Shown here: positions 14,384 through 63,712 of the stretch, piece after piece
Layout: every line of letters begins with the position of its first letter
Numbering within the stretch: position 1 is the first letter of the stretch
Origin: Eledone cirrhosa
Taxonomy: Eukaryota
Assembly (NCBI GenBank): GCA_964016885.1
Contig: OZ024740.1
Location: 292,578,001-292,642,000 of the forward strand
Reading direction: 5' to 3'
DNA: 64,000 bases
Program-made: the position numbers and the translations under genes
The notes under the pieces: model-generated
What the model saw: only the letters and a program-made list of their open reading frames with translations
The model's database searches: none
Told to the model about the DNA's origin: nothing

Positions 14384-14728
14384 CATCTGTAGATAATAGT
14401 TGAGAAAAAATAGAGGAATTACCCGAAGAGTAGGCAACAATTTATCATTCATCTGAATGGTTGTTGTTTAACTTCAGCTCTGTTTTAATCGAGCATACCT
14501 GTAATTAAAGGTGTACAACTATTGACCATCTTAACATTTTGGGGAGTAAATTATGGTCAAAAGGCTTAAAACATTCATAAAATATAAAAAATAGTCATTA
14601 CAAATGCTTCTCTGCTCTGAGAACATCAAACACTGTCATGGAAACTGTTTAAAAAATTTATGTAGTTTTAATATTTCCTTAAAATAAACTCTGGATATTA
14701 ACAAAAAATTATAGTCAATATTTCTTCA

Positions 14729-15072
14729 CCCTAACTAAATAAGGAAGGATAGGCTAGATAACGTATTCCTAGCCAACCCTAAACTAAATAAGGACAGGCT
14801 AGGTTAGATAACGTATTCCTAGCCAACCTTAAACTAAATAAGGAAAGGCTGGGTTAGATAACGTAGTCCTAGCCAACCTTAAACTAAATAAGGAAAGGCT
14901 AGGTTAGATAACGTAGTCCTAGCCAACCCTAAACTAAATAAGGAAAGGGTGGGTTAGATAACGTAGTCCTATCCAACCTTAAACTAAATAAGGAAAGGCT
15001 GGGTTAGATAACGTAGTCCTAGCCAACCCTAAACTTAATAAGGAAAGGATAGGCTAGATAACGTAGTCCTAA
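14729..15072. repeat. Minisatellite, 50-bp unit, about 7 copies
   Basis: Unit aaactaaataaggaaaggct(a/g)ggttagataacgtagtcctagccaacc(c/t)t repeats at 50-nt spacing. Confidence 0.97.
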
Positions 15073-23290: not shown

Positions 23291-23679
23291 TTAACCAGCA
23301 GAAAAGATACAAATAATAGTTTCTGATTTAGGCACAAGACCAACAATTTTAGGGGGAAAGGGAAAGTTGATTATATTGACCCCAGTGCATTATTGCTACT
23401 TTATTTTATCGACCCCCGTAAGGATGAAAGGCAAAGATAACCTCGGTGGGATTTGAACTCAGAACGTAAAGGACCATAATTCTATGCCGTGAAGCATGTT
23501 GACCGACGCTCTACCGATTCTGCTAAACCACCGCTCTAGAGAGGATATATATAATACATTGGATATATCATTGACTATACTAGTCCTGTCTGGGCAGCTC
23601 AGGTCTCCACAGCAAACGATAAATACACAAAATATCACAAGTTACATACAGACGATCTACACAATATACTTAATACCCA

Positions 23680-24468
23680 CTTTGTTGAAACTATATGTGA
23701 GCTTTAAAATCATGTTTTAAGTCTATTAATTCTTCAAGTAGATTAAAATGATTAACGTGTGGATTAGAAAGAAATGGTTCATATTATGATTTAAGTTGGG
23801 TACAACATATCAAGTCCTATAATAGTTGCTTTTATTTGTATAACCGGAAATACTGAATAACACGTCTTGTAATGTTACTTTTGTAAAATGTTATTTTGAG
23901 GACAAAAGAATTTATAGATTCTTTAGCTTTAATGAAGGTCATATTATTTCCTTGCGATTTGTTGTTCATCTCATTTAGTTTCTAGATATCAGAGAACTCC
24001 CAGAGAAATGTCACTTCGTTTTCTTTTGTTACTGCATTAAACATTTTCTCTTCATAAAACTTTAAAAATCCCCAAAACAGTATCGTACAGATCATAAAAC
24101 ATAATGACAACATTTCCCAAAAAATGCATCTATTCATCCAATTTTCAAAACATTGTGAAAAGTTTTATGTAGTCTACTTGCTGCGATACTTTACAGTTAA
24201 ATATTACCAGTGATATAGCAGTGAATCGTAAAGATATTTGGAATTGCTTATTTTAAATGTTGGATAGATGCTGGATGGCAACCAATCATAGTAGGTACTC
24301 CATCAGTTGCCAATGCAATAACATTTGTGAGATGAATATTTTTATCGTTAAAAATCTGATCGACTATTCTTTTGTGTCAGTTTTTAAATGTTCGGTAAAT
24401 AGAAAGTCTTTTATAACTTCATGATTTGTATTTGAATAAGGCATGAAGGTCAGTAGGAGTGCCCTATG
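23680..24468 (-). mobile_element. hAT (Charlie/Buster-type) transposase fossil, downstream half
   Basis: Minus translation ALLLTFMPY...IKDFLFTEHLKTDT...NIHLTNVIALATDGVPTMIGCH...IFTIHC (the TDGAxxMxG and HC motifs). Confidence 0.75.
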
Positions 24469-24470
24469 CA

Positions 24471-25057
24471 TGTGACTGGGGGTTACGCTGAAGCAGGTAA
24501 AGAAGTCCAAGTATCTCAGAGACGTTTTCACGAGTGATGGAAAGCATGAGGCTGAATTAAATGCAAGAATTACAGGAGCTGGTGCAGTAATGCCTCAGCT
24601 TCAGCACTCGGTCATCAGAAAAAGAGAAGTAAGTGGAAAAAATAAACTCGCTATCTTTAATTCTTTGTTCGTGCCAACCCTAACTTATGTCAAGAATATT
24701 GCGTAATGACCGAAACAATACGGTAGTGAACACGAGCGGCCGAAATGGATTTCCTCCGACGGGTGTTTGGAGTAAGGTCGCTCGATAGGTCACACCTTTG
24801 AGAACCACTACTTTGCCAAATCGGGAGATCACAACTTTGATACAATGGACATGTGGTTAGAATATCTAAGGAAAGATTTGCTGGACAGATTTGACAGGCA
24901 AAACCAACCGGCAGGCAACCGAGGGATCGACCTCGAGCAAAATGGCTGGATAACATTCATGAGCTTAGCTGGTCTCGCTTGAGATCCATCCAGATCAATT
25001 CGAAATGGTTGCTTTTGAAAAGCATGTTTGAGGAGTCTGCTCCCACAACCTTCCCTG
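24471..25057 (+). mobile_element. RTE-clade (Expander/Rex3-like) LINE 3' fragment ending at (TAA)n
   Basis: LKQVKKSKYL..FTSDGKHEAELNARITGAGAVM...KLAIFNSLFVPTLTY...GHVVR...PRAKWLD. Confidence 0.75.
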
Positions 25058-27300
25058 TAATAATAATAATAATAATAATAATGGTTTCTTTATTGGCCAC
25101 AAGGGCTAACATGAAGAAAAATATTACAGACGGCACAGAACGGTACAGGACGATACAAAGTGGGTTTTGGCCGTGTAAAAAGGTTACAACAAGATAGAAA
25201 TCAAACAAATTCAAACAACAAAGATTCCCCAAAAAGGGGGAAACCTACGAGGCTCACACGTGGCGAAAACCACACAAAAGACCACGGCCACCCTGACCAC
25301 CAGGGCAAGCGCCCTCTCTTAGTTTTCCCACTCCTCAGTCTACAGGCGTATACTCAGAGCGAGCCCGTTCACTCGGACCAGACTCGCAACTTTCACCCAC
25401 CTTTCAACAAACTTACTAGAAGACAGCTCTTGCCTCTCAGCGCTGATTTTCATCTTCAAGTGAAACTTGAAAAAGTTAATCAGGGATTGGCCGGAGAGGA
25501 AAGTGTCCGTCTTCAACCCTTTCAACCTTGTCCACCACACAATCTCTTTCGCCATGGCCACCAGGCAGATGAAAACTGCCTGCCCTTCCTATTCTTTAAA
25601 GGAGGATGGCGGGGCTATCTGAACAATGGACTCAGTCGATAACCGGATCGGTCCTACACGCGACAGCAATTGTTCGACATAACTCCACAAGTCAGCAATC
25701 CTCGGGCACTGAACGAGTGCGTGCAGGACAGTTTCGTCGCCCTACGCGCATCTCGGACAGGCTCGGCTGACAGCACCTCCATGCCTATAGAACTTATCCC
25801 GAACCGGCAACGCTCCCCGGTAGCACTGCCAGGCCAGGGATTTCTGGAAGTTGTCTGTAGGCACCGGGCTGAAAGTTCCCTTGAAGAGAGCGAACAGCTG
25901 ATCGTATACGACGTCCACGGTCTCCGCGAGAACGTCGTCGCTCTTCCCCTCCACTAGCCGTCTATAAAACACCGAGGTGGATGTTCCACCGATACTAGTG
26001 CCCAGCTGGTAGAGGGTGGTGAGCGCTTGGAGACATTGCAGCTTCCAAGAGCTATCCCTCGGTCTTTATCTGATCCAGGACTGCAGCTCCGTCAAGGAGA
26101 CGAGCTGGGGTAAAGCGCGTCTGGCAAACGGCGACCGTCAAGGAAGCACCAGAGATGTCGCAGCCTCAGCGTATGTTTGCGCATCATCAGCCACGGCATG
26201 CCCAGTCCTCCACGCAGCGGGTGTTGACAGCAGAGGGATCGTCTGACCATGGGAGCACGTCCCTTCCACAAAAAGCGGAAGAGAGGGCAATTTTTTTCCC
26301 CGCATTAAACCGGGACTAACGTTATATCATCACTCCGTAGGGTCCTCGGTGAGTGCGATTTTGCTTCCTGGGTGGTAGCAAAAAGGACGTCCATGGTAGC
26401 ATATTTCTTGCCACGGGTGATGTGGGTTTTCCGTGCCCACACAATTCCCAAGGCCTTCTGGATTTGGGCCTCCGAGGCTCTCTCCACACGACTTTATTTC
26501 ATGGCAATTGTGTAGTATGACATTGTGCGTCGCTCTTGATCCTCCAGGAAGTCGGTTGGTGGTTTCAAGGACACTGAAAATTCAGTTCTGGTTACCATGT
26601 GTCTTGCGACCACCAGCTCCTCCTCTGTGATCAGGACTGTTTCTACGTTGCGAGCCACCTTTGCAAAAGAGATGGTCCCTTTTTCAGTGGCCACCACTAC
26701 TGCTGCTACTGGTCTTGTTTTGGTGCTGTTGTTGTTGCTACTGCTACAAACGGTGTTGGTGTTGTTGCTGCTGCTGCTACTACTACTGCTACCACAGGTG
26801 TTATTGTTGTTACTGCTGCTGCTGCTGCTACCTCCTTTGTTGTCAAATGCATCAGCAGCAGCCGCTTCTAACCGCCGCTTGATGAAGAGGAGAATGAAAT
26901 GGCCTTTGCCTGACTTTCACTATGTGACGACGAAGAAGACGAAAAGGAAAGTGAGACTTCACGCTGACAACTTGGTGAAGAAAGGAATTGTTGTGAGCGA
27001 AGACAAGGTAGAGAATGATAGCTTGGTGAAGGAGTAATTTTTGTGTGGAGACATGGTAGAGAAACGGATTTTTTGAATGACGCCATTTTTCTTTTTTTTT
27101 TGTGGGCGTATTTGCTAAATGCAAAGTTCAAATTAGAATTTAGCCCCGAAGGGCTAAATACCGTTTTATTTCGACCACCTCAAAAGAAGCGGGGTGTGTT
27201 TAAATACAAAACAATATAAATCTTTACAATAAGTTTGCAATAAAATCTTCAAAAATCACAAACTTACGGGAGCAAATTTTTCCTGCGACCTGTATATTTC
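25058..27300 (-). mobile_element. Tx1/L1-type LINE copy A, internally deleted (5' UTR and ORF1 start joined to the ORF2 3' end at about 26290)
   Basis: ORF1 piece ERASEAQIQKALGIVWARKT matches copy B; ORF2 pieces RGALPVRDK..RACPRC and KEIVWWTR; 3' end ccttgtggccaataaagaaacc(att)n. Confidence 0.88.
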
Positions 27301-27301
27301 C

Positions 27302-27332
<31 letters not shown>

Positions 27333-27581
27333 TTTCTTTATTAACCACAAGGGTTTACATAAAGTAGACATTAAGGTCAGTGCAGGACAATACAGGACGG
27401 TACAAATGGGCATTTCTGCGTGTAAAAAACAAAAACAGAGGATGTAACAAAAAAATAACAATGAAAAATTCCCCAATAGGGGGGAGACTTCGGAGGGACA
27501 TTTGTGGAGAAAGCCCAGTGAAAGGCCACAGTGACCCTGACCACCAAGGCAAGTGCCCTCTCCCAGTTTTCCACCTTTAAT

Positions 27582-30500
27582 TTACAGATACGTACTCAGA
27601 GTAGGCCCATTCACTCGGGCCATTCTTGCTTCTCTCACCCATCTTTCAACAAAATGCTGGGAAGAGAGCACTTCCCTCTCTACTCTGATTTTCCTTTTCA
27701 AATGAAATTTGAAAAAGTCAATCAGGGCATCACCGAAAAGGTAAGTGCTCGTCTTCAGCCCTTTCAAACGTGTCCACCATACTATCTCTTTCGCCATGGC
27801 CACCAGACAGATAAAAACTGCCTGCCCTTCCCGGCTAAAGGAAGAGGGCGGGGCAATCCTCACGATGGACTCAGATGATAGCCGGATCCGTCCTACACGC
27901 GACAGCAGGTGTTCGACATAAAGTCAGCAATTTTCGGACACTGGACGAGTGCGTGCAGGACGGTTTCGCCGCCCTGCGCGCATCTCGGACATGCCCGGCT
28001 GACGGCACCTCCATGCCTGTAGAGTTTATCCCGAACTGGCAAGGCTCCTCGGTAGCACTGCCAGGCCAGGGATTTCTGGAAGTTGTCCATAGGCCCCGGC
28101 CTGAAAGTTCTTCCGAAAAGATTGGCTAGTTGATTTTCGTCGACGCCTAGAGTTTCCCCAAGTACGTCGTCGCTCTTCCCCTCCACTAATCCTCTATAGA
28201 ACGTCAAGGTGGAGTTTCCACTGATCACATAGCCCGATTGGTCGAGGGCTGTGAGCGCCTGAAGACATTCCAGTCTCCAAGCGCTCCCTCGAGGTCTTCG
28301 CTTGACCCAGGACTGCAGCTCCGTCAAGGAGACGAGCTGGGGAAAGACGCGTCTAGCAAACAGCGACCACACCTGATCACCGTCGAGGAAGAGGTGGAGA
28401 TGTCGTAGCCTGAGCGCATGTCTGCGCATCATCAGCCACAGCATGCCCAGCCCTCCACGTAGCGGGTGTTGACAGCAGATGGACTGCCTGACCATCGGAG
28501 CGCGTCCCTTCCACAAGAAGCGAAAGAGCAAACACTCCAGCGCAGTCAGGCGAGGCTTAGGACAAGGTACGACGGTCAGGCGGTAGTAGATGACGGACGC
28601 GATGTACGCGTTAGCCACCTCCGCTCGACCTTTCAGGGATAGCTTCCTCTCGGCCCATTTCTGGGTGAGAGAAGCCACCCTGCTCGTCACCTCATCCCAG
28701 TTTTTGTCCGTCTGGAGGTCCGGACCGAACCAGACCCCTAGCAATTTAACCGGTCCGTCCGTCCAGCGCCCGACGACGCTGTTGGACGGCATGGACCTGC
28801 CTCTCCAGGTGCCGAGCTGCAGGCCCACTGACTTTTCCTGGTTGATCATTGCTCCTGTCACCGCTTCGTATTCTCTTAGTGTAGTGCCGATCGCCTCGAT
28901 GTGTTTGGCGTTCGACACCACTACGATGACATCGTCCGCATATGCTGACACGGATCTTCCCCATCCTAGTTCGCGCGGGACCCCCTGAACGTCTCCAATT
29001 TGTGCAGTAATGGCTCGAGAGTCAATACGTACAAGAGGGACGAGAGGGGACATCCTTGGCGGACCGAGCGCATGATATTGAACGGTTCCGAAAAGTGACC
29101 GTTCACTCTCACCACAGAGCAGATGTCGCTGTGCATGGCAGCGATCCAGCCTCTGAAGACGGGCCCAAAGCCAGCCGCCCTCAGGACTGCCTAGGTAACG
29201 ATGGTAAACCCTATCGAAAGCTTTCGACTGATCTAAATTGATCAAGGACCCACCCGTGCCAGGTTCGCTAGCTACCGTCTCCACGATGTATCGCATGAGG
29301 TGGAGGTTGTCGTGGATGGATCTGTCGGGAATGGCGCATGTCTGCGCCTTTCCCACCAGACCACCAACGACAAGCGCCAACATCTTTGCTAGCACCTTGG
29401 CCAAAATCTTGAACTCTGTGTTTAGCAGAGTTATGGGCCTGAAATTATCTATGTTATCCCCCTTGTTCGGATCCTTTCTCAGCAGCGCCACCGCTCCTCG
29501 GCTCACAGAGCTGGGAATTCTCCCGTTCTGTTGCCAGTTGCAGTAGACGTCCGCCAAGAGACCTCCGAACAAGTCTGGCATCTGTACGTAAAGTTCATAG
29601 GGCAGACCATCCAAACCAGGCGATTTACCCCTTGTGCAGCCAGTCATTGCCTCTCGTACTTCAGCGGCTGTTATCGGCTTTTCGCAACACTCCGCCTTAG
29701 TGGCCGAGAGCCGCGGCAGTCCGTCGAGGTAGACACTAAAGTCCATCCCTAGATCCGGCCCGCCGCTACCCCCGAACAGTTGAGCGAAGTGTCGCTGAAA
29801 AGCTTCACACATTTGCCGGGGATCGAGTAGCATGCACCCGTCGTGGTCCACCGAAGACCGGATCGTGGCTTTGTTGCCACGACGCGCCTCCGCCACTCGG
29901 GCCCATTGAACGGCTTTCGTCGCCTCGTGTCTGAGAGCACGCACCCTAGCTCTGACAACGCAGCCTTCGTGCTTTGCATTGAAGAATTGGTCAAGGGCCA
30001 ATTTCGCCGCAAGTACTTCGGTCGCGATGCCTTTGCTAAGCGCCTCGTCTAATTTTCTAACTAGTTCTCCCTCTGCTCTATTTTTCTCTATAGCTAAAGC
30101 CTTACTAAACCTAATGGACTCTATTCTAATCGCTCTTTTCAGAGAAAACCACCACTTGTAGTTGACGATGGCCCCCGTCAACGCCCGCTTAACTAGTTCG
30201 CTAATCCGGTCTCTGTAGGCCTTGCGCGCTGGTAAGGACGCGTTTAGCTTCCAGTAGCCGGGTCCTCGTCTATGAAGCCTATCTAAGTCAAACACACAGA
30301 TCACGAATTTGAGGTCCGTGTAGCTGACTATCTTGAATTGTGGACAGCCTATGCTAGACCTATCTATTTCCCTACAATATACTCTATCTAGATATGATCT
30401 GGATGACCCGATACAGTTTGTCCAAGTCCACATTGGCACATTCGGGAAATCCAATCGGTACCTGTAAGACAGTTCAAAACGCATGAGCAGGTTGGTGAGG

Positions 30501-30979
30501 CTCTTGCAGCCTCCTCCCTTATCCGCTAATCCCACACAGTCCCAGCGTGCATCTAAGATCCCGTTCCAGTCGCCCACTAACACTAAAGAGCGCGACGTTC
30601 CAAGAAAGGTCTCCAGACGCCGGAAGAAATCAGGCCGCCCTGCTCCTGTCGGGGCATAGACGGCCACTAGCCTGAAAGCTTGCCCGTCTCCGCTGGTCAC
30701 GTGCAGCACCACCAACTTACCTTCTGGGTCCAGGAAGATGGCCCGTATGGAGAGATCCAAACCTCTCCGAAAAAGCACAGCAACTCCTTCCCCCGATCCA
30801 GGACGGCTGGGAGATGCGTACACATCGTAGCCGCCGAAGGCCCGTGCTTCGGAGATTCTGGTCTCGCTGATGGCCACTACACCTACGTTTAGTGACCTGA
30901 GATCGTTGAGCAGGTGGCCCTGCTTCCAAGACGACCCCAAGCCACGCGCATTTATGCTGCCTATTCTGAGTGAGGTCAT
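27582..30979 (-). pseudogene. LINE ORF2 (APE endonuclease + reverse transcriptase + zinc domain), frameshifted
   Basis: SINARGL, ISET, VYAP, GDWN, YLDR (APE); KSPGLDGLP, FRPITLLN, DQSKAFDRV, YADD (RT); CPRC..ET..H; motif RQGCPLS is in another frame between about 29190 and 28980; a further shift occurs near 27920. Confidence 0.93.
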
Positions 30980-31013
30980 GTTGAAATGGAGTGGAAAAGA
31001 TGGGAAAGACCAC

Positions 31014-32926
31014 TTACCTTACTTCTCGTAGAGGAAGGATGGTTACTCCATCCTTTTCACTGCTTGTGGCCCCCTCCGGAAGGATGTCCTTATAAATCCT
31101 CCTGGAGAGTGCTTGTCGGAAGTCTCCGATGTCTTTGGGGAATTTTTGTTTTAGTGTCGTGTACGTTTTCTGTGTGATGCGAGTGATTTGTATGTGTGGA
31201 GGTGGTGTGAACTTTTGGGGTGTTGTGTAGTCTTTTTCTGTGATGCTGGTGTTGTGTTGGATGTAGTGTAATAATTGGTTGTTGTTCAAATTTAATGCTG
31301 TGTAGTGTGTACCGTTTTGGTTGTTTTGTTTTGTTTGCGTTTGTTGTGGGTTTGTTTCTGTTTCGCTTTTTGGTGACTTTTGTGGTGCTGGTGTTGGTGG
31401 TGTTGGGGTTAATGATGGTGATGGTGTTGGTGTTTGTGGTGATGGGGTTGGTGATGCTGGTGTGGATGGTGGCATAGCTGTCCTAACTTTTTTGTTTCAT
31501 AGTTTATTTGTTTCCTTCTGTATTTTGTTTTTGGAGGGGGAAGGAAGAGGATTTTTTCTTTTTTTCTTTTTTCCTGATACAGTTTCCCACTCCCCGTCGT
31601 CACAATCTGTCTCCAGTTGCGATAGGTCGGGGAGTGGAAAATCCTCCACAGGCGTTGGTTTTGGTTGTGGCGTGGTGGATGGTGGAGGCGCTGGTGCTAG
31701 TTCTGGCGCGGTGGGTGGTGGTGGTGGTGGTGGTGGTTTTGCTACAGTTGCTTCAGTTGTTGCTGCCATTTCTGCTGCTGGTGGTGTTGATGGTTGAGTC
31801 ACTGGGTGGGTAAGAGAGGTGGCCTCAACTTTTTAGCCTGAGGGCAGAAAGCCTTTAGGTGGGTTCTTTCACCACAAATGACACACCTAGGCCTTCTACC
31901 CTCGACGATTACGGTGAGGTGGCTGCTGTCAGTGAGGTCTATTACCTCTGGGATTTCCTCAATTTTTTTTTGGTCCGCTTGGATCAGGAGCTCCATCCCA
32001 GATCCGGACCAGTTCTCCTGCTTTTCTTTTGATATTTCAATTATTTTGGTGTTGGCCTCGATGCCGGCGAGGACGGCAGCCATTAGCCAGGGAATTTCGA
32101 TGGCCGGTGGAACGTGGGTCACCCTGATCTTCACGAGTCTCTGGACACAATAGCTTGGGACGAGTGTGAAGTCGTCGCTTCGTAATGGGGCCATAGGGTG
32201 CTCTCTGGCCTTCTGTGGTGTTCCAAACAACACGTTCACAGTTCCATATTTCTGCCCACGTCTGATGTCGGTTTTTTTCGCCCACACATGTCCCAAAGCT
32301 TTTTGGATTTGGGACTCGGATGCCCGTTTCACTCGGCGCGATTTTGTGTTAATCGTCCGATAAGACACGGTGCATAGGCGCCGATGCTCCATTTTATTAG
32401 GTGGGGGAGGGGGCTGACCCTGTACCCGTCTTTCTTTACCATTCTCTTGGCTTCATTTAATTCCTTCTGAGTTACCTCGATTGTTTCGCATTTCTTAGCT
32501 GCTTTGGCAAACGACACATTTGCCGTGGTGTTGATGTTTTTGTTGTTATTCTCATTGTTGTTGTTGCTGTTGTTGTTATTGTTATGTTTGTTATTGCTAT
32601 TTTTAGTTTCAGTTGTGGTGGTGGTGGCGTCAGTGGTGTTCCGTGTGGAAGAGTCGATTCTGGGTGAATCCATTTCGATGTCACGAGATAATTTTTTTTT
32701 CTTTTGTTTCTGTTGTCGCTGTGGTGGTGGTGGGGGTGGCGGCTTTAACACCTGCAGCTCTTGGTAATGGCGGAAAATGAACGTCTGCATGAGACAAATT
32801 TAAATTATTGCTACTGCTTATATTTTTAGTGTCGGCAAACGTAGTAATATTTACAATGGTGGTGTTGGTGTGAGGTGTTAGTTTGTGAGGAAGGCTTTCA
32901 GCCTGGTGTGGCTGTGAGTCGTCCAT
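31014..32926 (-). pseudogene. LINE ORF1 (gag-like, CX2CX4HX4C knuckle), split by frameshifts
   Basis: ORF pieces 32681-32926, 32329-32790, 31799-32392 (EGRRPRCVICGERTHLKAFCP), 31497-31802 (Pro-rich, WETVSGKKKKRK), 31014-31475. Confidence 0.85.
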
Positions 32927-33140
32927 GATTTTTTCAAAGAAATTTTTTGTTTGATAATTATAAAAGTTTAAATTTTGGGCTCAAGGCCCCAATCCTTTTG
33001 AGTGTCCCTTTCCGAAAGCAATATATGTGAACTTATAAACTCTTAACAACAACAATTTTCCATAAATGGCAATTTGAAACAATTGAAAACAACAAACCTT
33101 TGCGGAGCTCACGATAATACGATTTCCTACGTAGGTCGCC

Positions 33141-33460
33141 AATAATAATAATAATAATAATAATAATGATTTCATTTATTGGTCACAACCACAAGGGCCG
33201 ACATATAGGGGACAATACAAAAACTGGGACAGTGGGGGTTTACATATACAACGTGTAAACAATATAAATAACAAGAAAAAAAAAAAAAATACAAGAAAAA
33301 TTCCCCAATAGGAGGGATGACCACCCAGGGTTCACTCAGGTACCCCACCAATCCTGAACGACCCGACGGTTTGAGAGCACCCGGGAAGGGCTCCCCTCTC
33401 CTCCTCAAATTCACCCACCTACAGGCGCATGATCAGAGTAGGCCCACTCACACAGGCATT
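33141..33460 (-). mobile_element. Tx1/L1-type LINE copy C, 5'-truncated 3' end
   Basis: Last ORF2 codons, a 3' UTR similar to copies A/B/D, and an (ATT)n tail at 33141-33168. Confidence 0.85.
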
Positions 33461-34030
33461 TGCTATTGCGTCAACTGTTGTTGATACTGAACTATTGCTG
33501 GGACGAATTAGTAAAGTGAAATTATTATTACCAGAGGATAATAACAGTAAGTACAACAACGTTTACTGCTGGTAAGATGAGAATTTCACCAATAGAATCT
33601 GGTTTTCCACCCTTAGCGATTAACTTTTAAACTTTGCAGTCTATTTATGTTGTTCTTCTGGTGCGTTTAATACATCTAGTTGCTTTGCATGAGAGAAAAT
33701 ATTTTAAAATTAGGGATCGAATTCTGGCAAATCTGACAAAATTGTTGATGAATGAAGTTCTTCTTCGGTTGTGAACTGATAAGACATGACAACTACTAGA
33801 AGTGAAATCCTATTAATTAAGTCTCTGCTATTTCTAATAATGGTCTATATCGGCAACAGTTAGTTTATATGAATGTTCGATAGAAGTATTCGATAAATTC
33901 GATTGATGAACCGAGAGAATAATCTAAAGTTTTGATCCCTTGTTTGAGAGCGCGTTCTTAAATGGCTAAAATGATTTCCATGGAATATTCGTATGACTCT
34001 TTATCTCTTTTACATTTTCCAGTCGATTGG
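33461..34030 (-). mobile_element. hAT (Charlie/Buster-type) transposase fossil, upstream half
   Basis: Minus translation LIAKGGKPDSIGEILILPAV...PSNSSVSTTVDAIA resembles the Charlie motif LIAKxxKPxTIGExLILPA...PLSNxTVxRRIxxMA. Confidence 0.72.
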
Positions 34031-34099
34031 CAGCGTCTGTGTAACTTTGTATCTTCTTAAATAAAGTAAGTGTTCAAGAGAAATATACGCCATTACTTT

Positions 34100-34555
34100 C
34101 GTTTAAAAAAATCAAACAAATATAACTTTTAATGTTTACTACATTTTGGAAACAAGTTATACAATGATGGAAATATTAAAATAAAAGATAAAAATAAAAC
34201 CGAGTAAAGAAAAAACAAGAGGGGGAGGTTAAAGAAGGGCGGTATAGGAAAGTAAAGGAAAGGACTATAAATGCCATAAATATGAAGAAAAGGAGGGAAA
34301 GAGCAAGGACTATTGGGTAGCGAGAGAAAGAGAGAGGGAAGGGGAGAAGGTGACAGACTCTACACCTAGGTCGAGGCGGTGTTTCGGTTGCACCTCACGA
34401 AAGGCATTTCCGCGAACAGTGGCCAGCAACACCCGCTGGAACAGCCACACCACCCTGCGGGGCTCCGTCCACAGAAGGGCTGTTGACGTTCCGATTTTAC
34501 GGATGAGTTCCAGGACGCCTGGAATCGCGATGGCGATCGACCGGGAGTAGAACAT
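34100..34555 (-). mobile_element. CRE-like non-LTR retrotransposon 3' fragment
   Basis: LIRKIG...EPRRVVWLFQRVLLATVRGNA, resembling the CRE restriction-like endonuclease C-terminal motif LFQRxSxAxxRGNA. Confidence 0.65.
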
Positions 34556-40047: not shown

Positions 40048-40120
40048 TATAATAATAATAATAATTGTTTCTACTTTAGGCACAAGGCCAGCAATTACCC
40101 AGTGCATTACTGGTACTGGG

Positions 40121-41060
40121 TAATAATAATAATAATTTCATTTATTAGCCACAAGGGCCGACATGTAGGGGACAATACAAAGACAGGGACAGTGGGGGTT
40201 TACAATAAGGTCGAGTAAAAGTGCACAATGGCAAGACTAATTTAACAATGAAAATATAAAAATATAAAATAAACTATGCTTAAATATAACAAAATAAATT
40301 CCCCGATAGGGGAGTGATTCGGGTACCCCACCAATCCTGAACCACCCCTCTCCTCAAGTTAGCTAGCCTATAGGCGCATGGTCAGAGTAGGCCCATTCAC
40401 ACAAGCCATTCTCGCACCTTTTAGCAAATGTACTGGGGGGCAGCACTTCTCTCTCCACCCTCACCTTCCTTTCCAGGTGAAACTTGAAGAAGTTGATGAG
40501 GGATTGGCCGAAGAGAAAAGTGTCTGTCTTTAGTCCTTTCAACCTGGTCCACCATATAATCTCTTTCGTAACTGCCACCAGACAGAGGAAAATTTCCTGC
40601 TCTTCCTGACCTAAGGAAGGCGGTGGATCGATCTTCACTATGGACTCGGCCGATAGCCGGATTCGTTCCACACGCGACAGTAGCTGTTCGACATAACTCC
40701 ACAAGTCAGTAATGCACGGAAATTGGACAAGTGCGTGCAGAACGGTTTCGTCGTTCTGTGCGCATCTTGGGCAGGTCCATCTGACAGTACTTCCGTGCCT
40801 GTAGAGTTTATCCCGAACCGGCAGTGCCCCCCGGTAGCACTGCCAAGCGAGGGATTTCTGGAAATTGTCCATCGTCCCCGGCTCAAAAGTCCTCCGGTAC
40901 AGACTGGTCAGTTCGACTTCGTCGAGGCCCAAAGCTTCTCCGAGTGCGTCATCGCACTTGCCCACCACTAATCCTCTATAGAACTCAAGAGTGGAAGTTC
41001 CACTGATCGCATTGCCCGCTTGGTAGAGGGAAGTGAGTGCCTGGCAACATTCCAGGTGCC
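40121..41060 (-). mobile_element. Tx1/L1-type LINE copy D, 5'-truncated, flanked by a direct duplication of about 67 bp
   Basis: ORF 40363-40968 is the ORF2 C-terminus; flanks 40050-40117 and 41061-41127 are the same SINE-tail sequence. Confidence 0.88.
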
Positions 41061-41163
41061 ATAATAATTATAATTGTTTCTACGTTTTGGCACAAGGCCA
41101 GCAAATACCCAGTGCATTACTGGTACTTTATTTTATCGACCCCGTAAGGATGAAAGGCAAAGT

Positions 41164-42292
41164 TTATTGTGTACAGTGCTCAGGTGCACTACAACTCGTC
41201 AAAGGTGCATGTATAGTACATAGAATAATATACAAATGTCAGGGAAGTGAATAGTGTATGAGTTATGATATACATGTGTGCGTGTGTATGGAGGGGGAAT
41301 ATTAGGTGTAGTGTTGGCGAATCTCAGGAAGCATGGAGATTTTAAAGGATGCAGTGTCTCGGCAGCTAACAACTGATGCAGGTAATTTGTTCCATGCTTC
41401 AACAACTCTGAGTGTGAAAAAATGTTTCCGAAAGTCATGGGAACTGTGCTGTTTTCTGACTTTGTGGGCATGCCCACGTGTGTTAGACACATGGAAATCA
41501 AAAAGGTACTCAGGGTTGTTGTTGGCAAAATGGTTAATAATTTTGTGGGTGTTTACCAAGTCAGTTGCCAGGCATCGGAGCTTCAATGTATCCATGCCCA
41601 GGGAAGCAAGGCGTTCAGAGTATGGTAGATGCCTGATGGAGGGTATTTGCTTGGTTGCACGTCTCTGAACAGTTTCCAGGCGGTCAATGTTCTGAGCAAG
41701 ATAGGGGTTCCAGACTGGTGATACAAATTCTAAGTGTGGCCGCACCATAGATATCTACAGCTTTAAATAGATAGCTGGAGAGCGGCTGACAAAGGTCTTG
41801 CTGAGTGATGCTAAGACATCCTCGGCCTTCTTGACAATTTTAGAGACGTGCTTCGTCCAACGCAAATCGATGCTGACCATAATGCCCAGGTGACGTTCAC
41901 AAGAAGACTTCTTGATATTAGTGTTGTGGAGGGAGCATGTGGACGCTGGGTTTTTACTCCCAAAATGCATGGTGGTACACTTGTCCACAGCTAGCTTGAG
42001 TTGCCAGTCTGTGAGCCATTGTTGCATTGTGTCCAGGTCAGATTGCAGGCAAGATCTATAATGTTCAGGATCTGTCCTTATTATCTCAAGGTACAGCTTG
42101 ATGTCATCTGCATATTTCAGTACTGTGGCATTTTTTAAGTTGGCATCTATGTCATTAATATATGGCACAAACAAAAGGGCGCCAAGAACATATCCCTGTG
42201 GTACACCAGATGACATCTCATATGGTGAGGAATGCTATCCTAGAACCGCGTCTACCTCTCTTCGATGAGATTGAAGGACTTCAACCAGTTGA
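41164..42292 (-). mobile_element. CR1-clade LINE 3' fragment; another 3' tip at about 47838-47886(+)
   Basis: SGVPQGYVLG.LLF..YIND, YADDIKLY, VRPHLEF..PVWNPY, LETVQRRATK, RKHFFTLRVVEAWNKLP. Confidence 0.92.

Positions 42293-43149: not shown

Positions 43150-43183
<34 letters not shown>
42950..43183 (+). mobile_element. Tx1/L1-type LINE 3' UTR remnant (copy E) ending in (ATT)n
   Basis: ccccccaatggggaattt motif, T-rich stretch, and tgtattgtcccc.atgtc as in copies C/D. Confidence 0.6.
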
Positions 43184-43184
<1 letters not shown>

Positions 43185-43913
43185 AGGGCGGTGGATTGGC
43201 AGTATCGGTAGAGGGTCGGACGCCATGCTTTCCAGCATACTTACGTCCCTTTACGGTCTGAGTTCAAATCCCGTTGAGGTTAACTTTGCCTTTCATCCTT
43301 ACGGGGTCGATAAAATAAAGCACTAGTATCGTACTGGGGTCGAGTTAATCGACTTTCCCCTCCCCCAAAATTGCTGGCGTTGTGCCTATATAAGAAACCA
43401 TTATTACTATTATTATAAGGGTAGCGGATTGGCAGTATCGGTAGAGCGTCGGACAATATATTTTGCAGCATATAGTTACGGCCCTTTATGTTCTGAGCTC
43501 AAATCCTGTTGAGGTTAGCTTTGCCTTTCATCATTTCGAGGTTGATAAAATAAAGCACCAGTAAACATTGGAGTCGATTTAATCGATTTTCCCCTCCCTT
43601 TCAAATTGTTGGCCTAGTGCTTAAAGTAGAAACAATTATCATTATTAAAGTGTGGATTGGCAGTATCGGTAGAGGGTCGGACGCCATGCTTTCCAGCTAA
43701 GAGTTACGGCCCTTTATGGTCTGAGTTATGCTCTCATCTATATAGAAAGAGGGCGAGCGCCAGGCGAGGGGCATTTACATAGATAGAGAGAAAAGGGTAT
43801 GAGTTTAAATCCCGGCGAGGTTAACTTTGCTTTTCGTCCTTACGGGGTCGATAAAGTACCAGTAATAAACAGGATGATTGCTGGCCTTGTGCCAAAAGTA
43901 GAAACAATTATTA
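43185..43913 (+). mobile_element. Head-to-tail array of four type-1 SINE copies
   Basis: Units at about 43185-43417, 43419-43647, 43649-43727 (truncated) and 43799-43913; the first three heads follow an ATT-rich tail. Confidence 0.88.
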
Positions 43914-53845: not shown

Positions 53846-54527
53846 TGTAGAGTGGTTGTCTAGGAGTTGTTACAAAAAGCACACAGCCCACACTGTAAAG
53901 TGGTTGTGTAGGAGTCATGACAAAAAGCACCCAGCCCACACTGTAGAGTGGTTGTCTAGGAGTCGTGACAAAAAGCACCCAGCCCACACTGTAGTGGTTG
54001 TGTAGGTGTCACAACAAAAAGCACCCAGCCCACACTGTAAAGTGGTTGTGTAGGTGTCACGACAAAAAGCACCCAGCCCACACTGTAAAGTGATTGTGTA
54101 GGTGTCACGACAAAATGCACCCAGCCCACACTGTAAAGTCGTTGTGTAGGTGTCACGACAAAAAGCACCCAGCCCACACTGTAGAGTGGTTGTCTAGGAG
54201 TCGTGACAAAAAGCACCCAGCCCACACTGTAGTGGTTGTCTAGGAGTCGTGACAAAAAGCACCCAGCCCACACTGTAGAGTGGTTGTCTAGGAGTCGTGA
54301 CAAAAAGCACCCAGCCCACACTGTAGAGTGGTTGTGTAGGTGTCACGACAAAAAGCACCCAGCACACACTGTAAATGTGATTGGCATTAGGAAGAGGATC
54401 TAGCCATAGAAGCCAAGCCAGAAACAGTTCTGTATGAGCTAGACAATCACCTGACCCAACTTGCCTCAAAAAGGCCAACCCGTCTAACCTATGCTAGGAT
54501 GGAAAATAGATGTTAAACAATGATGAT
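53846..54527 (+). repeat. RTE-tailed SINE-like repeat with an internal 48-bp minisatellite (11 units)
   Basis: Unit gacaaaaagcacccagcccacactgta(a/g)agtggttgtgtaggtgtcac, then ggcattaggaag...atgttaaa..tgatgat tail. Confidence 0.9.
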
Positions 54528-63139: not shown

Positions 63140-63712
63140 GTGTAGACAAAAAGCACCCAGCCCATGCTGTAAAGTGGTTGTGTAGGAGTCACAACAAAAA
63201 GTACCCAGTCCTCACTGTAAAGTGGTTGTGTAGGTGTCATGACAAAAAGCAATCACCCCACACTGTAAAGTGGTCGTATAATTGCCATGACGAAAAAAAC
63301 TCAGCACACACTGTAAAATGGTCATGTCGGAGTCACAACAAAAAGCACCCATTACACACTGTAGAGTGGTTGTGTAGGAGTCATGACAAAAAGCACCCAG
63401 CCAACACAGTAAAGTGGTTGTGCATGAGTCACGACAAAAAGCACCCTGCCCACACTGTAGAGTGGTTGTGTACGTGTCACGACAAAAAGCACCCAGCCCA
63501 CACTGTAGAGTGGTTGTGTAGGTGTCACGACAAAAAGCACCCAGCACACACTGTAAATGTGATTGGCATTAGAAAAGGCATCTAGCCATAGAAGCCAAGC
63601 CAGAAACAGTTCGGTATGAGCAAGGCACGGTCACCTGACCAACTTGCCTCAAACAGGTCAACCCATCTAACCCATGCTAGCGTGGAAATGGATGTTAAAT
63701 GATGATGATGAT
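63140..63712 (+). repeat. Second copy of the RTE-tailed repeat with the 48-bp minisatellite (9 units)
   Basis: Same unit and same downstream body as 53846-54527. Confidence 0.9.

Follow-up and report, generated by a model that had tools for sequence, protein, structure and literature searches.

A stretch of 64,000 nucleotides of the Eledone cirrhosa genome (hereafter the window; C1:292578001-292642000 of the 3.0-Gb assembly, to which the genome-wide counts also refer) contains an array of three dead and diverged copies, named A, B and C, of a Tx1-like long interspersed nuclear element (LINE), joined by ATT microsatellite tracts. Read along the minus strand, the region shows hAT-like DNA, copy C, (ATT)9, copy B, (ATT)9, copy A, (ATT)8, the 3' end of a LINE lying on the opposite strand, and more hAT-like DNA. 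An earlier note on this DNA had described the copies as same-strand neighbours without host DNA between them, and the minus-strand joins do consist of (ATT)8-9 tracts only; the reported merging of the A tail with the (TAA)n of the opposite-strand element corresponds to the (ATT)8 tract that both share. This opposite-strand LINE is presumably of RTE type, a label taken from its translation. Across the genome, the family has thousands of dispersed copies, and the full-length ones start in phase behind (ATT)n and also have (ATT)n as their tail.

Copies A and B are 77.9% identical across their last 1.2 kb and have unrelated heads (5' ends), which agrees with the earlier view that the array is not a simple tandem duplication. 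Copy A carries a large internal deletion that fuses its 5' untranslated region (UTR) and the first part of open reading frame 1 (ORF1; 27303-26287) to ORF2 at residue ~823 (26283). Its start, formerly placed at 27300 and read as at/ggaaat, had to be moved to 27303: other copies read ATT/GTGGAAG and the window copy is mutated to ATGGAAA, so that the A junction is in the same phase as that of B (ATT/GGCGACC). Among the loci collected in this analysis, the nearest copies were 96.4% (3') and 93.9% (5') identical for B, 90.5% for C, 88.9% (5') and 85.9% (3') for A, and 74% for the opposite-strand LINE; by these sequence identities, B is the youngest copy of the array. Copy C is joined to its host through an AATG microhomology, with ATT and a duplication both absent at the junction. 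The host is a decayed transposase that we take to be hAT-like from its motifs, and ~90-100 bp of it are gone between the outer array junctions in comparison with the paralogue L062. This loss likely explains why the 5' end of C abuts hAT sequence and not ATT, which the earlier note had seen correctly and entered as a caveat; other truncated copies also lose the tract. As an empty-site query, the hAT-like flank found a single 73% paralogue, which sized the lost piece and could not rebuild the site. Contigs assembled from four sequencing runs over 23600-34150 showed neither an array-spanning contig nor an empty allele, the signal being swamped by other family copies.

Table 1. Features of the array, of its host element and of the copy D region, in window positions. 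APE, apurinic/apyrimidinic endonuclease; RT, reverse transcriptase; SINE, short interspersed nuclear element.
Feature	Positions	Strand	Description
Copy C	33168..33457	-	290 bp, 5'-truncated 3' end, C-type subfamily
Tract C/B	33141..33167	-	(ATT)9
Copy B	27331..33140	-	Full-length, dead; head GGCGACC
Copy B ORF1	~32926-31014	-	Broken; one CCHC knuckle
Copy B ORF2	~30979-27585	-	Frameshifted; APE, RT and zf-RVT domains
Tract B/A	27304..27330	-	(ATT)9
Copy A	25083..27303	-	Head intact (family GTGGAAG), 3' end intact; large internal deletion
Tract A/opposite-strand LINE	25058..25082	-	(ATT)8, common to the A tail and the (TAA)n tail of the LINE
Opposite-strand LINE	24458..25057	+	Old, 5'-truncated 3' end; likely tract seed
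hAT-like transposase, N-terminal part	33457..33800	-	Decayed; interrupted by the array
hAT-like element, C-terminal part	23700..24470	-	Same element as the 33457..33800 piece
Copy D	40137..41061	-	C-type, 5'-truncated; own tail 40121-40136
SINE 3' piece (ATT-tailed), upstream of D	41062..41164	-	Degenerate ATT tail precedes the D start
5'-truncated SINE within the D tail	40049..40117	-	98.5% match to a SINE of another locus; 94% match to the 41062..41164 piece

A search with the B tail also reached subfamily E, a young sister of B whose copies are 98-99% alike and whose ORF2 is 96% like that of B, with a different 5' UTR and ORF1. In whole-genome counts, 579 of the 621 exact B heads (93.2%) and 1564 of the 1604 exact E heads (97.5%) stand directly after ATTATTATT, in phase, whereas 20 of 209,877 G positions follow ATTATTATT (~1e-4) in a background of 59 evenly spaced 10-kb stretches (590 kb). 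The ATT-rich 5' flanks that the earlier note had predicted are thus enriched about 10,000-fold, and with 93-98% of exact heads the preference is well above the >20% of flanks of one type by which targets were called in PMC4494074. Among the best 30 heads of each subfamily, 29 of B and 21 of A follow ATT in phase, and 25 of the 30 A heads have at least four ATT in 30 nt (background 0.9%). Loci chosen by the tail alone (n=20) contained a head in 19 cases, all 19 preceded by (ATT)6-41. Eight of 11 extended C-type loci reach the head, all after ATT (seven in exact phase), and the other three are truncated. Six further head types were found after ATT, nearly always beginning with G. A (CTT)n repeat appears only farther upstream, in few compound tracts (3/30), the junctions themselves being ATT. 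The 5' tracts of E heads have a median of 8 units and 51 of 53 have at least six, while the tracts after tails have a median of 13 units (n=40; p 0.009 against the 5' tracts of E).

Truncated copies were analyzed in 34 of 38 rows, after L050, L034, L166 and one L168 row had been dropped as likely internal deletions or repeats. At least two ATT were present in the last 24 nt upstream of 19 of the 34, compared with 11% of the background. Clear duplications of 15-18 bp, starting with ATTAT where the tail joins and reaching up to the 5' junction, were seen in six truncated copies. In standard target-primed reverse transcription, a duplication starting with ATT corresponds to priming on the AAT strand at the T/A step. 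In addition, four or five truncated copies, read by eye, are joined straight to the end of an ATT-tailed neighbour that has lost its tail.

Other elements share the tracts of the family or, likely, its machinery. An ATT-tailed SINE with 85 tails in 590 kb shows duplications that start with ATTAT in 19 of 47 cases, against 2.7%. Over its final 34 nt, the SINE is similar to A, B and D (equalled by 3-9 of 1000 shuffles) and unlike CR1-like or RTE-like ends (equalled by 182 and 654 of 1000 shuffles, respectively), and it is likely mobilised by the machinery of the ATT LINE. Furthermore, two single-ORF families lie, on the opposite strand, in the tracts that the LINE family uses; they show an RT, a C-terminal CCHC and a PD..D motif, some in long open frames, and from this layout we assume them to be Dong/R4-like. 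Three of their copies (L074, L092 and L196), two of them within the evenly spaced sample, have open frames of 972-1216 aa, which suggests that these families were recently active.

Family tails were found by script upstream of 6 of 30 B, 11 of 30 A and 12 of 30 E heads (29/90; 31 by eye). Among random tracts of at least five units, 7 of 28 are family tails, a matching share (Fisher p 0.49), so that most stacking needs no self-recognition; with all subfamilies pooled, no extra preference for own tails was detected. About one in four of the long targets of the family is of its own making, which is enough for the overall stacking rate. Among the 99 gaps between the first 100 E heads listed on C1, 13 are one unit long and on the same strand, and 17 are same-strand gaps of up to 7.1 kb, against none to an opposite-strand head within that distance. 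This E-E adjacency of 13% compares with 1.6-4.6% expected from even tract use (binomial p 1e-8 to 7e-4); young E neighbours are favoured 3-8 fold, through tract purity, region or template jumping, causes that are not separable here. In 10 of 11 E neighbour pairs (two of the 11 not unit-spaced) the members are not nearest kin, so the adjacent copies are independent insertions and a tandem duplication of E units is ruled out for these 10 pairs. Copies of E also stand upstream of older B, F or H heads at 4 of 17 loci; both flanking tracts are therefore used and the insertion order cannot be read from the layout. The earlier statement that each copy starts in the tail of its neighbour accordingly holds as geometry and not as an order of insertion. 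Unit-spaced arrays of 2-4 copies recur in the genome and, together with the flanks, bear out the proposal that a LINE targeting ATT and renewing its own target builds arrays, the endonuclease being the putative source of specificity. Two candidate pure E arrays, with four and three unit-spaced heads, lie at C1:114792134-114810533 and 118955054-118967333, respectively, and a regional cluster of 7 heads in 120 kb is found near C1:55.4-55.5 Mb.

The array in the window is very probably the product of independent insertions of Tx1-like LINEs at (ATT)n, in which the endonuclease and the AUU tail would leave a tract on both sides of each copy as the next target. The endonuclease likely nicks the AAT strand, with the first cut predicted at a T/A step of (AAT)n close to the upstream border of the tract, and the AUU-repeat RNA tail likely primes reverse transcription at the nicked tract. 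A second nick, predicted 15-18 bp downstream, would result in a 5' tract that is rarely under six units. The full-length 5' junction would be completed only if the target ends in ATT, the RNA possibly starting one or two AUU units above the head, and joins at short sites would end truncated or delete the tract. As each insertion would leave a tract on either side, a likely target for a further copy is provided every time. Our preferred account of the strict phase, about as likely as not, is an RNA start a few bases within the tract, with a cDNA end that has to base-pair with ATT. Applied to the window, the (TAA)n tail of the old LINE likely seeded the site, A and C would have followed, in either order, and B would have come last, between them; the insertion of C with a deletion would have removed its 5' tract.

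Several results weigh against this mechanism. Fewer than two ATT are found upstream in 15 of the 34 truncated copies, and about seven (C, L069, L167, L176, L179, L242 and L248) show no target sign by eye. The six clear duplications all belong to the older C-type, with none in truncated copies of the B/E-type, and the automated duplication test was weak (9/34 positive, of which three were only ATT-like, compared with 8.7% under the null). The sites of the SINE carry only one or two ATT units, so that the minimal target of the machinery may be far below microsatellite length. Any idea of a leader at the 5' end comes from one locus (L207), and none of 17 E copies splits a repeat that lacks a tract. 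Finally, the contigs of the four runs gave no empty allele for the array. In a wider reading, possible and put forward tentatively, the lineage is still active in a self-feeding (ATT)n cycle of genome scale: it would make one in four long tracts, favour the fresh ones, borrow the last AUU units of the target as its RNA start, so that a full-length copy is finished only in register within a tract, mobilise the commonest ATT-tailed SINE of the genome and share its tracts with unrelated Dong/R4-like elements entering from the opposite side, which would turn ATT tracts into octopod hubs of composite retroelement arrays.

Could the 5' (ATT)n be part of the element itself, as an AUU leader of about six units carried by the RNA through read-through or a start within the tract, with an enzyme that needs a short ATTAT only? 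In that case, the flanks would show what the element carries along and not its landing sites. The sharp lower edge at six units, the fixed phase, and the use of short sites by SINEs and truncated copies would fit this; the locus L207 looks as if a SINE carried a 20-bp duplication with (ATT)12 behind it, and 5' junctions of R2 arise from cDNA annealing to upstream target sequence (PMC11371274). However, no second case of a duplication plus leader was read by eye in 53 copies with both ends, the interruption of a tract-less repeat was seen in 0/17 further E copies, tails too are followed by long tracts, and six units equal the length of the 15-18 bp duplication. A general 5' ATT leader thus remains unsupported and is, in our judgement, improbable. 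The excess of adjacent E copies, together with one E pair that is 0.2% apart and mutually near-nearest, could also indicate that tandem E-E units are made in one event, by a template jump from the RNA end to the next AUU tail on top of targeting, the way in which R2 yields head-to-tail products (PMC11371274). Against such jumps, most stacks combine subfamilies of differing age, as A, B and C do in the window, and fresh pure tracts or regional hot spots (the 7 heads in 120 kb) could give the same excess; we consider one-event units rather unlikely.

Two further explanations have very little in their favour. Broad insertion followed by survival in ATT-rich regions, or tracts that grow at the heads later, has a precedent in the passive accumulation proposed for Drosophila Waldo-A/B near CA repeats (PMC3812793), and some truncated copies lack ATT. 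The flank counts of B and E heads contradict it, given that the base-precise phase is higher in the youngest copies (97.5%) than in older B (93.2%), and the duplications begin exactly with ATTAT; it is therefore hardly credible. The array might also be a tandem duplication or an assembly artefact, in view of the lack of a single spanning contig in the four runs; A and B, however, differ in identity and heads as described above, each belongs to its own genome-wide subfamily, and the same junction types occur at many other loci, which leaves this explanation with a minimal chance. Independent insertion at (ATT)n is retained as the preferred reading.

The family combines at least nine unrelated 5' UTR/ORF1 modules with three ORF2/3' lineages; B and E, for example, do not share their first 2 kb. 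These combinations of heads and ORF2 point to repeated module exchange. Among 13 young copies examined, eight have a full ORF2 and six of them a full ORF1 as well. In several heads, GTAAG stands 35-50 nt past the start; in addition, the A head (window 27260-27270) shares GCTCCCGTAAGTTT with the head of opposite-strand Dong/R4-like elements (L074 minus strand, ~5680); GTAAG and GCTCCCGTAAGTTT are possibly a shared promoter or a splice-donor-like signal. In an A-type copy at L060:320-1700, the ORF1 region has grown into a 48-bp tandem repeat.

The Pfam domains Exo_endo_phos, RVT_1 and zf-RVT were above cut-off in B and in the intact copy L228, with ORF1 as a separate frame (two ORFs); no Rfam match was found in L228. 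This layout of APE, RT and zinc finger is also shared with L1 and hence not diagnostic of Tx1 alone. The catalytic motifs of the APE align with the human L1 endonuclease, which was the best solved-structure match (E 2e-5). Of 66 matches in the genome, with overlapping loci counted repeatedly, 40 have an identical APE hairpin-loop region, which is variable in outside relatives; in L1 and in Tx1L chimeras this loop affects nicking or target choice (PMC1950540).

The closest named relative of the family RT is an Argonauta hians protein (74%), and the best named full-length match is the Transposon TX1 149 kDa protein (32%). In a tree of 66 rows from a quick tree search, with neither Repbase references nor vertebrate L1 among them, the octopod rows cluster together (support 99) within a larger group of 51 rows (support 94, unstarred). 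The latter contains the Transposon TX1 149 kDa protein, proteins of turtles and fish, and elements that have U2, 5S or U1 genes at their flanks; 12 other L1-like rows and two Dong-like rows fall outside. A U2 target is that of Keno (PMC4494074). Membership of the lineage in Tx1 is probable. A metagenome scan returned distant relatives only (25-42%), with an ATT tail in 0 of 25 loci inspected. Tx1-like elements of the metagenomes lie by small-RNA genes according to Rfam: U2 for L299, L301, L306, L300 and L302, 5S for L305 and L310, and U1 for L321, which shows a piece of the U1 gene at its 3' end.

A fourth copy of the family, D, lies elsewhere in the window. The observation that it starts after ATT was right, with the refinement that this ATT is the degenerate tail of a SINE piece. 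A 67-bp repeat around D was considered as a long target duplication and rejected, as the two pieces are independent SINE copies. Just upstream of the SINE that precedes D, the 3' part of a LINE with an RVT_1 match occupies 41179-42260; we take it to be CR1/L2-like, and copies of it elsewhere have a terminal ATT tail that is used as a target (L003, L177). On the plus strand, 43152-43727 contains three ATT-tailed SINEs head to tail, the first one after (ATT)10. Minisatellites of 48-bp and 50-bp units are found at 53846-54383, 63145-63565 and 14728-15071, the 48-bp array being present in two places.

Microsatellite-targeting Tx1 elements and tandem insertion are already known, and the (ATT)n target is apparently new. 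Kibi in (TC)n and Koshi in (TTC)n of teleosts, and the crocodilian Tx1 families in (TTCC)n/(TTTC)n (PMC4494074, PMC3812793), resemble the family described here as APE-type Tx1-like LINEs with a microsatellite target that was called from flanks. The junctions here are ATT and not (TC)n, (TTC)n or (TTCC/TTTC)n, and this family also differs from Kibi and Koshi in its mollusc host, its thousands of dispersed copies and its at least nine different heads on three ORF2 lineages, all with one target. Dong, of the R4 clade, sits in the same microsatellite (TAA) in silkworm, mosquito and the snail Biomphalaria (PMC3812793). The Dong-like elements of this genome have a restriction-like endonuclease and one ORF and lie on the opposite strand, whereas the ATT family has an N-terminal APE, two ORFs and an ATT tail, and the Dong-like rows fall far outside it in the tree. 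Tandem insertion has been reported for the Tx1-mobilised SINEU-3 (PMC4494074) and for Utopia-1_NVit (PMC4640811), where sequential insertion at a renewed target also gives head-to-tail copies; in those cases the duplication restores a transposon or U2 site as the target, while here the own tail is a target as well and accounts for about a quarter of long tracts.

Human L1 and Alu insert into older A-tails, and in these elements, too, the tail resembles the target and duplications start with tail-like bases. Their nick at TTTT/AA and their poly(A) tail are described in PMC1950540; human L1 differs in being promiscuous, with full-length heads in no fixed repeat phase. In Octopus vulgaris, 13 recently active L1-Tx1 families have been reported (PMC13282606), and they are probably the same or a related lineage. 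The parts seen of the octopus papers (PMC13282606, PMC8967140, PMC9115989, PMC10294476, PMC4758252) list L1-Tx1 and Dong families and contain no target analysis. The literature search found no ATT-targeting Tx1 and no cephalopod target analysis; an earlier record in Repbase Reports is possible, and a 2004 survey may bear on novelty.

With this family, (ATT)n joins the known targets of APE-type LINEs that insert into microsatellites; how such LINEs find their targets was called poorly understood in a 2013 review (PMC3812793). Its intact, near-identical copies and more than 1,600 counted insertions are material for studying targeting. Two unrelated endonuclease types use one repeat from opposite strands, and the very abundant SINE is offered a likely partner LINE. 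Furthermore, the family offers a source for much of the ATT microsatellite load of the genome and for its composite repeat arrays. In these animals, ATT markers will often lie within retroelement junctions, and repeat libraries will fuse the stacked families.

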